This document shows positions 18,956 to 24,647 of a DNA stretch of 64,000 nt, in pieces. The DNA comes from Candidatus Bathyarchaeota archaeon (GTDB taxonomy: Archaea; Thermoproteota; Bathyarchaeia; Bathyarchaeales; Bathycorpusculaceae). Position 1 is the first letter of the stretch. Each line of letters begins with the position of its first letter. Under the pieces are notes generated by a model that did not search any database, had not been told where the DNA came from, and saw only the letters and a list, made by a program, of their open reading frames with translations. The translations under genes and the position numbers were made by a program. The DNA is taken from positions 160,001 through 224,000 of the forward strand of contig CAWHDT010000007.1 of the NCBI GenBank assembly GCA_963828195.1, in the 5' to 3' direction.

Positions 18956-20200
18956 TTAAAGGACTTGAGCAGTATTAACTTGTGGCAATAACTTTGATTC
19001 TTCAAGAATCTTCTTGAATTCCTTATCTTTTAGCGATTCTTTTTTACCGTTTGCATAAACAGCTTTAACCTGCTTAACCACTGCTGACAAGGCATCATTG
19101 CTTGGGTAGTTGCCTGTTATTTCGATAATTTTATGTTTGACTATGCTTTTGCCAGATTGTTTGCCTATAGTTAAGTGTCGTACGTTACCAACTAGCTCGG
19201 GAGGATACGGTTCATAAGTCCAAGAGTCATTGAGGACGCCGCACGTGTGGATGCCTGATTCGTGTGCGAAGCCATAGTCACCCACGATGGCTTTGTTAAG
19301 TGGAACGACGAAGCCGGTTGCTTTGCTAATGAAGTCTGCCGCCTGTCTGAGCTTTTGAGTTTTTCCCTCGAATTTTTTGATACCGTGATGCAAGTACAGG
19401 TTGAGGACAACTTTCTCGGTTTCCGCATTACCTGCGCGCTCCCCAATGCCCAAATACGTTGTATTTAGGTAGATTTTGTCCCACACTCCTGACGCTGCAC
19501 GTATGGCTGCCATAGTGTTTCCTAAAGCGTTGCCTAAGTCGTCGTGGGCATGAATCTCCAACGCCTTTATTCGAGTTTCTTTCTTGAGTGCAATCACTTT
19601 AGCGGGAATGCCAATTGGCAAAGGTGCGTCCAACTCGGGAAGCCCTATCCCCACTGTATCACAAACACGGTAACACTCTGCACCAGCATCCGCCGCCGCG
19701 TTAACGAATTTCTTTTCGAAAGCCCAATCCGCACGGGTAGCGTCCTCACCGTGAACAAACGTTCGTAACCCATGAGTTTTAGCGGCATATTCTACCACAT
19801 CCACCACATTAGCTAAGAGTTCATCAGTTGTTTTATCAGGCCACTTTGCCTGCAAATGAATATAAGAAACTGGATGCGAGATGCCAACTTCCTGAAAGTC
19901 CAAGTCGATAGCGCTGTCAATATCTTTTTTGACTGCTCTGCACCAGCCAGCAACTCTGCAATCCAGCTTCATACGGTGGATGAGTTTCGCTGCTTTTTTG
20001 TCGGGTTCTTGATAATGAAACAGTTCGATTCGTTCAGCACCTATTTCGCAAAGCAACTGCGCGATTTTTGCGGCGTCTTTAGGTCTAGTAGCTAAGCCGG
20101 GCATTTGCATGCCATCGCGCAGGGTGGTGTCATCGATAATGGGTTCGGTTTTGAGGGCGGGCATTTTGAAGAAAAAGTCGTTCAGTTCCATGCTCATCAC
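18956..20200 (-). CDS. nifV: Homocitrate synthase-like (DRE-TIM), NifV candidate
   Basis: DTTLRDG, CDTVG, HAHDDLG, GIGERAGNA, HESGIH; last gene of the nif operon. Confidence 0.75.
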   Translation of the reverse strand: MMSMELNDFFFKMPALKTEPIIDDTTLRDGMQMPGLATRPKDAAKIAQLLCEIGAERIELFHYQEPDKKAAKLIHRMKLDCRVAGWCRAVKKDIDSAIDLDFQEVGISHPVSYIHLQAKWPDKTTDELLANVVDVVEYAAKTHGLRTFVHGEDATRADWAFEKKFVNAAADAGAECYRVCDTVGIGLPELDAPLPIGIPAKVIALKKETRIKALEIHAHDDLGNALGNTMAAIRAASGVWDKIYLNTTYLGIGERAGNAETEKVVLNLYLHHGIKKFEGKTQKLRQAADFISKATGFVVPLNKAIVGDYGFAHESGIHTCGVLNDSWTYEPYPPELVGNVRHLTIGKQSGKSIVKHKIIEITGNYPSNDALSAVVKQVKAVYANGKKESLKDKEFKKILEESKLLPQVNTAQVL

Positions 20201-20207
20201 CTTGTGT

Positions 20208-21539
20208 TTATGCGTCTTTAGCGTCCATTATTGTGTTGACCAATGTATCCAGCAGTTGTAAGGAACCTCGGAAGCCAACCATGCTTCGTCTTTGGTAGCC
20301 GAATCGGTCGCTTTGCGGAAAGCCAACTCGAATAAGCGGTATGCCTTCGTCTTTGGAGATGTATTTGCCTTTACAATCGCCGATAATTAAGTCCACACGG
20401 GCTTCTTTGATTTTCTGATGTAGGTCATAGAGGTCGCCGCCAACGATTATATTCTGTTTCTCAGCGTCAACTCCGTACAATGTTGCTAGGGTCTGCATGT
20501 CTTGAGCAAACTGGCTGCCTTCAAGCGTTGTCATCACATGTACTGGCTGCATGCCAAGCTCGTAAACAAAACGGGTGATTCCTTGTACGATGTCGGGGTC
20601 GCCGAACACTGCGACTTTTGTGCCGAAGGTAATTTGGCTTGAATCAACTATGGCGTCAACTAGCAGGTCGCGTTCATCAATTAAAGATTCAGGCATGTTT
20701 TTCCCAGTCAGTGCGGTTAGGTTTGCAATGAAGGTTTCTGTGGATTCAACGCCGATTGGAAGATCCCCAAACTTGGCTGGCATGCTGTATTTTTCCTGCA
20801 GATAGTTTGCTGCGCCTTGCCCTTCATATTTGCAAAGTGGTATTGTTCCCTGCGAGTTTGAGCAGTCAGCAATTTCCTGGACTGTTGTTCCTCCACGGGG
20901 GAAATGTGGTTTAGGAAGACGCAGAGGTGCGTTGAGTGTTTGCGAGATATCGGTGAGGTATAGACCGGGGATGCCCATTTCTGCTAGGATATGTTTGATT
21001 TCTAAGACGTCGCCGGGGTTAAGCATGCCTGGAATAATGTTGACTTTGCCGTTGGGCTCTGTTTTTGGTTCAGCGAGCTGGGTGACGAGTGCTTTTATGG
21101 CATTGTCATATCCGATTACGTGGGTGCCGACGTAGCTGGGCGTGTGTATCCCAACTATTTTTGTGTGGCGCTCGTTGTTTTCGGATTTGAAGGCTTTAAT
21201 TATTCCGTGAATGTCATCGCCTGTTGTTTCGCTAAGGCAGGTGGTGATGACTGTGATTAATTCTGGGTGTTGACGGGCGATTATGTTGGATAATGCCAGT
21301 TTTAGGTTGATTGCGCCTCCAAAGATGGTTGCTTTCTCATGGAGAGAGGTGATGGCAACTTCTATGGGTTCGCGGAAGTGTCGGGACATCAAGTTGCGGG
21401 GATAGGTTGAGCAGCCCTGCGAGCCATGTATAAGCGGTACGCTACCATGAATGCCCAGAGTAGCCCAGATCGCACCGATAGGCTGGCACATACGTGGCGC
21501 GTTTATAGCGACACTTCTTTGTCTGTTAATTAGCACCAT
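20208..21539 (-). CDS. nifK: Nitrogenase component I beta subunit
   Basis: MCQPIGA, HGSQGC, TTCLSETTGDDI, TPSY; ATG at 21539. Confidence 0.88.
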   Translation of the reverse strand: MVLINRQRSVAINAPRMCQPIGAIWATLGIHGSVPLIHGSQGCSTYPRNLMSRHFREPIEVAITSLHEKATIFGGAINLKLALSNIIARQHPELITVITTCLSETTGDDIHGIIKAFKSENNERHTKIVGIHTPSYVGTHVIGYDNAIKALVTQLAEPKTEPNGKVNIIPGMLNPGDVLEIKHILAEMGIPGLYLTDISQTLNAPLRLPKPHFPRGGTTVQEIADCSNSQGTIPLCKYEGQGAANYLQEKYSMPAKFGDLPIGVESTETFIANLTALTGKNMPESLIDERDLLVDAIVDSSQITFGTKVAVFGDPDIVQGITRFVYELGMQPVHVMTTLEGSQFAQDMQTLATLYGVDAEKQNIIVGGDLYDLHQKIKEARVDLIIGDCKGKYISKDEGIPLIRVGFPQSDRFGYQRRSMVGFRGSLQLLDTLVNTIMDAKDA

Positions 21540-21541
21540 AG

Positions 21542-22918: not shown

Positions 22919-23818
22919 CTACTTCACCCCAGATTCGCTAGAGCGACCAAAGCCACTGAAATGTGTGCCGCAGGTTTCCTCGCTAGGCACCCCCATGGCG
23001 TCTGCTCTGCATTGGACGCAGTTGTGAAACTGGAATAGCATGCCTTCGCATAGGTGGCGGATTCTTTGAATTTCCTGCAGAGATGGAGCTGGAATATTGG
23101 CGAATTTTGCTTGGGGAATCAGGGGCATAATGTTCATTATGTAAGCGCCCATGTCACGTACGGTTCTGGCTACGTCAACCACATGTTCTGAGTTTATGCC
23201 GGGAATGAATACCGAGTTAACTTTGACGACTATGCCTGCGTCAGCGGCGGCTCGTAATCCGTCGAGTTGTTTTTTGCTAAGGACCTCGAACGCTTTTCTG
23301 CCCATGTACGTCTTGTTTTGGTAGCGAACGAAAGAGTAAATCTGCTCGCCTACCGTGGGGTCTAATGCGTTGATTGTTATTGTGAGGGCTGAAACGCCTA
23401 CCTCTTTTAGTTGGGCAAGTTTTTCTGGTAGCAGCAATCCGTTTGTTGAAACGCAACGGGTTAAATGTGGAAATTCCTTTTTCACTTGTCGAAGAGTATC
23501 AAATGTAACGTCACTGCTAAGGGGGTCGCCTGGGCCAGCAATGCCTACGACACGCAGTCGCGGGTCTTTTTGCACTGCAAACCGCACTCGCTCCATCGCT
23601 TCTTCAGCCGTTATCACTTTGCTTGTAACGCCGGGACGGTTCTCGTTGGCACAGTCGTATTTACGAACACAATAGTTGCAGCCTATGTTACATGTTGATA
23701 CGACGGGAAGATGTACTCTGCCAAACTTGAAATGCGCTCCCGAACCGTAACAAGGATGCTCCTGCACTAGCTGAGAGCAAATCTTTTTGCGTATCTCAGA
23801 TTTTTCATAGCTAACCAT
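22919..23818 (-). CDS. nifB: NifB radical SAM (no NifX domain)
   Basis: HPCY, CNIGCNYC, ENRPG, AGPGDPL, CVQCRADA. Confidence 0.93.
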   Translation of the reverse strand: MVSYEKSEIRKKICSQLVQEHPCYGSGAHFKFGRVHLPVVSTCNIGCNYCVRKYDCANENRPGVTSKVITAEEAMERVRFAVQKDPRLRVVGIAGPGDPLSSDVTFDTLRQVKKEFPHLTRCVSTNGLLLPEKLAQLKEVGVSALTITINALDPTVGEQIYSFVRYQNKTYMGRKAFEVLSKKQLDGLRAAADAGIVVKVNSVFIPGINSEHVVDVARTVRDMGAYIMNIMPLIPQAKFANIPAPSLQEIQRIRHLCEGMLFQFHNCVQCRADAMGVPSEETCGTHFSGFGRSSESGVK

Positions 23819-23828
23819 CTTTTGTCAC

Positions 23829-24647
23829 CTAGTCCACGATGCCGAATTCCCGCATTAAACTCTCTAATTCGTCTATACTGATCGGTGTGGGAATCGTAAA
23901 CACCTCGTTTTTCACTATTTTGCATGCTAGACTTCTATACACGCCAGCTTGCGCCGCTGTAGGATCAAAATCAATGACTGTTTTTCTGTGTATCTCAGCC
24001 TTCTGCACTAAGTTATCTCTTGGAATGAAGTGGATTAAGCGGCTGTTGATGCGTTTTGCGAATTCTGTTACTAGGGCTTCTTCGTTTTCGACTTTTCTCG
24101 AGTTACAGATGATTCCGCCTAAACGGGTTTGTCCCTGTTCTGCGAATTTTTTGATGCCTTTGCAGATGTTGTTTGCCGCGTATAGTGACATATACTCGCC
24201 TGATGCTACAATGTAGATTTCCTGCGCGTACCCTTCACGTATGGGCATTGCGAAGCCTCCGCAGACCACATCGCCTAGGACATCATAAAATACGAAGTCT
24301 AAATCTTCTTTATACATGCCTAATTCATGTAGTGTTTGAATTGAAGTAATGATTCCTCTGCCGCCACAGCCTACTCCAGGTTCTGGGCCGCCTGATTCGA
24401 CGCAGGTGACGCCGCCAAAACCTGTTGCTGAGATTAGCTCTGGCGATACCTGGCCTCCGCCGTCGCGAAGAACGTCCAATACTGTGGATTGCCGTTTTCC
24501 ATTTAAAAGTAAACGTGTGCAGTCTGCTTTTGGATCGCAACCAAGAAGCAGGATTTTTTTTCCCATCTCAGCTAACGCTGAGACTGTGTTTTGGGTTGTT
24601 GTGCTTTTTCCTATTCCACCTTTTCCGTATATTGCAATTTGTCTCAT
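23829..24647 (-). CDS. nifH: Nitrogenase iron protein
   Basis: [42 protein letters not shown]. Confidence 0.96.

Follow-up and report, generated by a model that had tools for sequence, protein, structure and literature searches.

A stretch of 64,000 nucleotides from the genome of a Candidatus Bathyarchaeota archaeon (GenBank assembly GCA_963828195.1, contig CAWHDT010000007.1, positions 160,001 to 224,000 of the forward strand; the whole stretch is called the window below) carries a five-gene nif operon. It is a real nitrogenase operon in a Bathyarchaeia-type archaeon that is devoid of the NifEN scaffold. With a probability of about 0.7, we regard it as a laterally acquired operon for a NifEN-independent (nifHBDK) molybdenum nitrogenase in a non-methanogenic member of this group. 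The core of this finding is not new, as nifHBDK clusters of Bathyarchaeia without NifEN have been in print since 2024 (PMC11697101). What can be added here to the main texts of that paper and of a study on the Roseiflexus enzyme (PMC11573651) is modest: where the fifth gene comes from, the linkage of the operon to modABC, a nif palindrome and an ATA codon at the start of nifD.

For N2 fixation, no gene set smaller than that for NifH, NifB, NifD and NifK together with one organic-acid synthase is known, and this set is wanted for transfer into crops. The only characterised system of this kind, that of Roseiflexus, needs high temperature, and a counterpart from an archaeon of soil or bog, having a synthase gene of its own, could work at ambient temperature. 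Bathyarchaeia are among the most abundant archaea of anoxic sediments and soils, and they would be a possible source of fixed nitrogen there. The genome that contains the window consists of 2.83 Mb in 9 contigs and is 96.14% complete. Where designations are needed, C3, C5 and C7 are contigs of this genome, L with a number is a related locus and G with a number is another genome.

Gene content and nitrogenase identity

Five open reading frames (ORFs) lie in the same orientation on the minus strand in the order nifH-nifB-nifD-nifK-synthase gene, spanning positions 18956-24647 (Table 1). All of them are intact, containing neither a stop nor a frameshift. A preliminary description of this DNA, made from the sequence alone, had claimed five co-oriented genes with gaps of 0-10 bp, and the gaps counted from the sequence are indeed 10 nucleotides (nt) between nifH and nifB, 0 nt between nifB and nifD, 2 nt between nifD and nifK and 7 nt between nifK and the fifth gene (V), the gap of 0 nt requiring that nifD start at 22918, where the codon is ATA. 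The start of nifK was assigned to the ATG at 21539 and not to an overlapping GTG at 21575; the alignments of most relatives begin at residue 12-13 of the ORF. The order H-B-D-K-V is kept in all of the nine related loci compared (the window, seven fetched regions and L039). These five are the only genes common to the nine loci and the flanks vary, which fits a cassette that has moved laterally.

Table 1. Features of the nif region, in positions of the window (scores in bits; aa, amino acids).
Feature	Position	Strand	Remarks
nifH, nitrogenase Fe protein, 272 aa	23829..24647	-	TIGR01287 433.3 vs cut-off 394.35
nifB, short radical-SAM-only form, 299 aa	22919..23818	-	TIGR01290 322.3 vs cut-off 343.65; TAG stop at 22919-22921
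nifD, alpha subunit, 458 codons stop to stop	21542..22918	-	TIGR01862 570.4 vs cut-off 486.05; PF00148 352 bits
nifK, beta subunit, 443 aa when started at ATG 21539	20208..21539	-	PF00148 425.7 bits
nif-linked homocitrate-synthase-like gene, 414 aa	18956..20200	-	HMGL-like and HCS_D2 domains
TATA-like element	24753..24760	-	about 110 nt upstream of the nifH ATG, adjoining the palindrome; putative archaeal promoter element
degenerate palindrome copy	24765..24782	-	diverged form; only L038 likewise diverged
ribbon-helix-helix gene, 165 aa	25028..25525	-	RHH_1 17.4 bits, below cut-off; candidate regulator, a weak lead
Lrp/AsnC-family gene, 137 aa	25548..25961	-	AsnC_trans_reg 39.2 bits, HTH_24 31.7 bits; candidate regulator, a weak lead

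In an alignment of 53 NifD and 14 NifE sequences, residues C47, V55, C73, R81, C136, Q173, H177, C254 and H419 of NifD (numbering of the 458-aa protein) are kept in all seven Bathyarchaeia rows, and so is S257; every alpha-subunit residue that the preliminary description had named is thus present. H360 and K403 are informative as well: Q173, H177, H360 and H419 are of the NifD type in the seven rows, the residues of NifE at these positions being mostly K, N/H/Y, T and N, and R81 and K403 are of the Mo type, the four Vnf/Anf rows carrying K and R. We take the equivalents in the Azotobacter protein to be C62, V70, C88, R96, C154, Q191, H195, C275, K426 and H442. The beta subunit had been said to keep three P-cluster cysteines, and the three corresponding motifs of NifK align with those of NifK of Methanocaldococcus infernus (9spz_B). 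The cluster cysteines of NifH and the hallmark motifs of NifB are kept too, as had been proposed.

Comparison with solved structures leads to the same assignment of the subunits. The best relative of NifD is M. infernus NifD (9spz_A, 521 bits), the scores being 441 bits for VnfD (5n6y), about 372 bits for Azotobacter-type NifD and 273-308 bits for NifE. Those of NifK and NifH are 9spz_B (423.6 bits) and 6nzj (394 bits), respectively, and NifB matches the solved NifB structures 7jmb, 7bi7 and 6y1x with 301-303 bits and with its Cys motifs aligned. In TIGR01290, a model of 441 positions, NifB matches just positions 7-278, and it stays below the cut-off of this model because the C-terminal part of the model is absent from it. 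The closest named homologues of NifD, 76-78% identical, come from metagenome-assembled genomes (MAGs) of Bathyarchaeota/Bathyarchaeia.

A quick maximum-likelihood tree was made from these 53 NifD and 14 NifE rows, which include those of 32 of 80 loci, hand-picked for taxonomic spread; L033 and L036 were left out by a strand filter and L055 and L057 for fragmented genes, and support is given by the Shimodaira-Hasegawa-like approximate likelihood ratio test (SH-aLRT) only. NifD and NifE are split with a support of 98. The NifD proteins of Bathyarchaeia form one clade (support 100) inside a 99-supported group that also includes Chloroflexi with Pyrohabitans-type archaea, Methanoperedens, Methanobacteria, Caldicellulosiruptor and Vnf/Anf, and this group stands apart from Group I/II NifD and from NifE. 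NifD of the window is outside the Vnf/Anf clade. It had been suggested that phylogeny might decide whether this protein belongs to the nitrogenases, and in the tree it groups with true nitrogenases and not with NifE or nitrogenase-like proteins. The Chloroflexi/Pyrohabitans clade has a support of 100, and the fork that joins it to the Bathyarchaeia clade has one of 83 and is drawn open, whereas the main text of PMC11697101 places the Bathy-6 clade with Clfx.

We consider it highly improbable that the enzyme, in the manner of the nitrogenase-like Mar, Nfl and Cfb, reduces something other than N2. Such a possibility comes to mind in view of the distant nitrogenase-like pairs that occur in the same genus and of the fact that diazotrophy has so far been shown for no Bathyarchaeia. 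However, the scores of NifD and NifK are those of nitrogenase proper, with the model for CfbD, TIGR03282, reaching only 41.2 against a cut-off of 268.4 and NifH scoring 390.5 with CfbC, for which the cut-off is 402; all ligands of the cofactor and the P-cluster are kept; and NifB and a homocitrate-synthase-like protein are encoded in the same operon.

Cofactor maturation and the fifth gene

The preliminary description had noted the lack of NifEN, a G subunit and NifI and had assumed a probable non-methanogenic archaeon, and both statements hold for the genome as a whole. A search of the whole genome with PF00148, a profile covering NifD/K/E/N, CfbD and BchN/B, gave two matches, nifD and nifK, and hence neither nifE nor nifN nor cfbD; tblastn of the genome with NifD and NifK returned only nifD and nifK themselves in each case. 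AnfG/VnfG (PF03139) has no match in the genome, a control with M. acetivorans being positive. The P-II family (GlnB/GlnK/NifI), present in 13 of 14 control genomes, has no member in this genome, and mcrA is also absent from it. The NifH family has a single real member in the genome, and the Nitro_FeMo-Co domain occurs in one small NifX-like ORF (C3:297652-298047) in an unrelated context. Of the mod genes, for which a search had been suggested, the genome has a complete modABC of its own on the same contig (C7:119270-122099; modA above cut-off), about 57 kb from the operon. Among 401 sampled genomes of the class, eight contain nitrogenase-type D/K pairs, six of them in the genus of the window and two in a sister genus. 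Exactly two PF00148 matches are found in seven of these eight; the other, G368, has four, owing to an extra distant nitrogenase-like pair.

Several known systems can be compared with this operon. The main text of PMC11697101 (ISME Commun 2024) describes nifHBDK without nifE and nifN in Bathy-6 Bathyarchaeia MAGs, regards this as the earliest example of a nitrogenase cluster in a non-methanogen archaeon, and reports conserved NifD active-site residues and an affinity to the Chloroflexi clade; its authors infer lateral acquisition. The present operon resembles the Bathy-6 locus described there in the H-B-D-K order, in the active-site residues, in the absence of nifE and nifN and in the name of the archaeal class. 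On the other hand, that main text is silent on a fifth gene, on molybdate transport and linkage to modABC, on a palindrome and on an ATA start; the words "homocitrate" and "nifV" do not occur in it, and its supplements may show a fifth gene. As for other reports on this group, the accessible text of PMC5498146 speaks of nifD and nifH in a bin of Bathyarchaeota, and PMC8407382 has no occurrence of those nif terms that were looked for in it.

The Roseiflexus system offers biochemical evidence. According to the accessible text of PMC11573651 (PNAS 2024), Roseiflexus NifH, NifB and apo-NifDK with homocitrate, molybdate and S-adenosylmethionine give an active Mo-nitrogenase in vitro without NifEN, and in the sources at hand Roseiflexus sp. 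RS-1 is the one system of this kind for which assembly of FeMo-co (iron-molybdenum cofactor) on NifDK has been shown. Its genes are likewise arranged H-B-D-K without NifEN, its NifD is 55-57% identical to that of the window, and it keeps the Mo-type equivalents of R96 and H442, as does the window; unlike the archaeon studied here, it is bacterial and thermophilic. Five Chloroflexi loci show H-B-D-K, and no homocitrate synthase gene stands beside nifK in any of six Chloroflexi loci examined. The arrangement is H, gap, D-K in Methanoperedens loci and D-K-E-N in Methanobacteria and canonical diazotrophs. NifDK of M. infernus (9spz; bioRxiv 10.1101/2025.10.10.681579), as far as its text is accessible, is a Mo-nitrogenase in which FeMo-co and homocitrate have been seen by crystallography. 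The residues named there for the proton path and as ligands are identical in the proteins of the window, which, unlike M. infernus, do not belong to a hyperthermophilic methanogen.

Since PMC11697101 and PMC11573651 report clusters of this kind in the text available, maturation without NifEN is the accepted reading for them, and the suggestion in the preliminary description that the cofactor may mature directly on NifDK matches, by analogy, the biochemistry of Roseiflexus nifHBDK. An outline of the process would be as follows. The short NifB would make the Fe8S9C precursor, which would be delivered directly to apo-NifDK, so that NifDK would serve as its own scaffold. On NifDK, the precursor would be converted into FeMo-co with NifH, molybdate and homocitrate, and the same NifDK would then reduce N2 in an ATP-dependent reaction driven by NifH. 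The organic acid ligand most likely comes from the nif-linked synthase, under nif control, and molybdate would be taken up via ModABC, encoded directly after the operon in some relatives and at a distance of about 57 kb in this genome. NifD of the present strain would probably arise from weak, coupled initiation at ATA, or else the operon may be on its way to loss.

What is the origin of the fifth gene? Its product has an HMGL-like domain (PF00682, 136 bits) and an HCS_D2 domain (PF22617, 58.7 bits), and among solved structures it is closest to the homocitrate synthase 6ktq_A (181 bits), which we take to be a crenarchaeal enzyme of the lysine pathway, the next being an isopropylmalate synthase (130 bits). 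The protein is under every NCBIfam cut-off: it scores 273.1 with nifV (TIGR02660; cut-off 462.9), 276.5 with LEU1_arch and, as its best, 305 bits with an isopropylmalate synthase model. Some sources label its relatives "citrate (Re)-synthase". The genome encodes a paralogue 74% identical to it (C5:213304-214527), and this housekeeping copy is 84-86% identical to NCBI-named Bathyarchaeota proteins. At least one synthase copy is found in 56 of 61 searched genomes of the genus, most of them without a nif-linked copy among the loci examined; eight of the 61 have two full-length copies, one of which adjoins nifK in all eight.

In a tree obtained by the same quick method, 34 unlinked copies make up a clade with an SH-aLRT support of 100 that excludes 13 nif-linked copies; a single nif-linked clade is not rejected by the approximately unbiased (AU) test (p = 0.80), and the tree containing it is slightly better. 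The mean identity is 73% among nif-linked copies, 85% among unlinked copies and 68.5% between the two groups. Only four columns split the groups, all of them conservatively, and of the 414 columns 137 show no variation in either group; the chemistry is probably the same. The fifth gene thus appears to be a captured duplicate, evolving faster, of a housekeeping homocitrate-synthase-like enzyme; it would do the job of NifV without belonging to the NifV family. It shares the superfamily (HMGL-like plus HCS_D2) and the nif linkage with canonical NifV (TIGR02660), and differs from it in scoring below the cut-off and in being a duplicate of a genus-wide synthase. The name nifV given in the preliminary description is a functional guess. 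It was also considered whether the housekeeping synthase might be a Re-citrate synthase; as the genome encodes a Si-type citrate synthase (429 bits), there is no need for such an enzyme. A look for the lysine (aminoadipate) pathway gave weak LysW matches of 28-29 bits (cut-off 53.2).

A link to molybdate is visible in relatives. In two of the nine loci (L036 and L038), modA and modB, both above NCBIfam cut-offs, directly follow the fifth gene. The modABC-like trio of L038 lies at L038:11553-14377 and has homologous genes in L036; modB also passes TIGR01581, and the ABC ATPase gene after modB in either trio is under the cut-offs of ModC and WtpC.

Several points weigh against a laterally acquired, NifEN-independent Mo-nitrogenase. 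What is shown are gene content, gene order, residues, phylogenetic position and the absence of nifEN, G-subunit and P-II genes, all of the biochemistry being inferred, and a genome that is 96% complete and not closed bounds the absence of NifEN. A sister relation to Roseiflexus depends on the fork with a support of 83, and the fifth gene has the model scores and the source labels mentioned above. NifD scores 488.5 with the nifD equivalog TIGR01282, a model built on canonical Group I/II-type NifD with a cut-off of 653.55, and passes the cut-off of the subfamily alt_nitrog_alph (527.5 vs 512.8). To these should be added the start codon of nifD, which is dealt with below.

The passing of alt_nitrog_alph, together with the higher score of VnfD 5n6y relative to Azotobacter-type NifD, raises the idea of another cofactor, with V, with Fe only or as an unmatured all-iron L-cluster instead of Mo; an L-cluster-bound form is conceivable without NifEN, and N2 reduction by the L-cluster is treated in published abstracts. 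We nevertheless judge it very unlikely. A G subunit is missing, the scores with the VNFD and ANFD equivalogs (434.9 and 419.5) are far under the cut-offs (823.1 and 873.8), NifD branches outside the Vnf/Anf clade, R81 and K403 are of the Mo type and the Mo-ligand histidine H419 is kept. Moreover, a modABC-like trio follows the operon in two of the nine loci, and the relatives from M. infernus and Roseiflexus have been shown to use Mo in the texts accessible to us.

Beyond the preferred explanation of a NifEN-independent Mo-nitrogenase, a joint reading of all observations can be put forward tentatively, as a possibility that we hold to be less likely than not: the operon may be a complete NifEN-free Mo module working at ambient temperature, with a captured duplicate of a synthase, with modABC attached in some relatives, with a 17-bp nif-specific operator and with NifD made by termination-reinitiation at ATA.

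The ATA codon of nifD

The codon at 22918-22916, on which the preliminary description had not remarked, is ATA and immediately follows the TAG of nifB (22921-22919), nifB and nifD sharing the same frame. The first in-frame ATG, GTG or TTG is 41 codons downstream, an ATG at 22795 (M42). All of the seven fetched relatives carry ATG where the window has ATA, and this ATG directly abuts the nifB stop in six of them; the closest NifD homologues in the database, with 458 aa, likewise have Met at the equivalent position. Within the 41 codons that would be skipped, R15, N34, T37, P39 and G40 are invariant in 13 diverse NifD proteins, and NifD started at M42 is therefore probably defective. A Shine-Dalgarno-like GGGGTGA is located 6-12 nt before the ATA, with nothing similar before the internal ATG. 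This sequence and the abutting stop of nifB favour coupled re-initiation at the ATA.

An assembly error is not supported as the source of the ATA. Logan contigs from two studies (X1 record 1 and X2 record 3) show no difference from the window across 22916, with the proviso that their depth is low (3.2-3.4) and that one of the runs may be the source of the window itself; in a strain of about 93% similarity, the base at this site is the one that makes the codon ATG. The runs with near-identical contigs are labelled soil metagenomes. No RNA run contains the stretch, which speaks neither for nor against expression of the operon, and run X4 gave no match. The ATA codon is therefore in all probability genuine. 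Pyrrolysine insertion at the nifB TAG, with read-through into nifD, was considered because the two genes share a frame, and was rejected: aragorn found no tRNA-Pyl, and relatives use either TAA or TAG, in each case followed by ATG.

As judged from the DNA alone, nifD may be poorly translated in this strain. Probably NifD is initiated weakly at ATA, perhaps in coupling with termination of nifB, or the nitrogenase of the strain is impaired. The latter alternative, in which hardly any or no full-length NifD is made after loss of the nifD ATG and the operon, functional in the relatives, is impaired or decaying here as a recent near-pseudogene, is in our estimation unlikely. It would explain why ATA stands against ATG in seven of seven relatives, as matched by contigs from two studies and set off by the ATG of the strain about 93% alike, why an N-terminal stretch with invariant residues would be skipped and why the promoter palindrome of the window is also degenerate. 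Against it, all five frames are without a stop or a frameshift, GGGGTGA and the abutting nifB stop favour coupled re-initiation, and the NifD branch is just slightly longer than those of its neighbours (0.12 vs 0.047-0.099). Weak use of ATA as a start codon is known in bacteria, which also counts against decay.

Some database entries for NifD of this clade are also called from an internal Met, namely P0021 (418 aa), P0022 (433 aa) and P0024 (415 aa). The first residue of P0021, which is encoded on a 483-kb contig, corresponds to M42, suggesting that other strains may also lack a canonical start.

Promoter palindrome and neighbouring genes

A 17-bp palindrome, TTGTGAA-N3-TTCACAA, is present upstream of nifH in seven of the nine loci with no or one mismatch and at the same place, about 45-85 nt upstream of nifH in L032-L039, and it neighbours a TATA-like CTTTTAAA. 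Four genomes have a single exact copy of the palindrome each, in every case before nifH, and no exact site exists in the genome of the window, where the copy before nifH is diverged (Table 1). In G347, a palindrome with one mismatch precedes a second nifB-like gene. A wider regulon of the palindrome was looked for and not found: in five relatives, sites with one mismatch away from nif had a frequency similar to that of the reversed-pattern control in three genomes. A scan for bacterial-type promoters and terminators gave 12 vs 8.5 and 10 vs 7.9 in shuffled sequences, numbers that are not meaningful for an archaeon. As a separate observation, L035 (G347) has a second, truncated nifB-like ORF after the fifth gene (L035:12167-12865; 232 aa, 153 bits with the nifB model).

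The ribbon-helix-helix and Lrp/AsnC genes listed in Table 1 stand beside nifH in the window and in L038 only, co-oriented in the former and divergent in the latter. A ribbon-helix-helix paralogue in G368 is 45% identical and above the cut-off of RHH_1 (27.3 bits). Paralogues of this kind lie near one-mismatch palindromes in G347 and G368, and in the genome of the window there is no one-mismatch palindrome near its own ribbon-helix-helix paralogue. Downstream of the operon and facing it, genes for a BlaI/Penicillinase_R-type repressor and a BlaR1/M48 peptidase are encoded on the plus strand (17004-18784); a similar M48/M56 peptidase gene is found by a one-mismatch palindrome in G346.

Two further observations concern the genus and the genome at large. 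Aragorn calls a tRNA-SeC with the anticodon TCA at C3:100933-101016 of the genome containing the window. The distant nitrogenase-like D/K pairs (L010-L021) are found in 11 genomes of the same genus, G368 included and that of the window excluded; they score about 250 and 200 bits with PF00148 and above cut-off with no NCBIfam model, and the open frames of one of the subunits reach about 720-760 codons.

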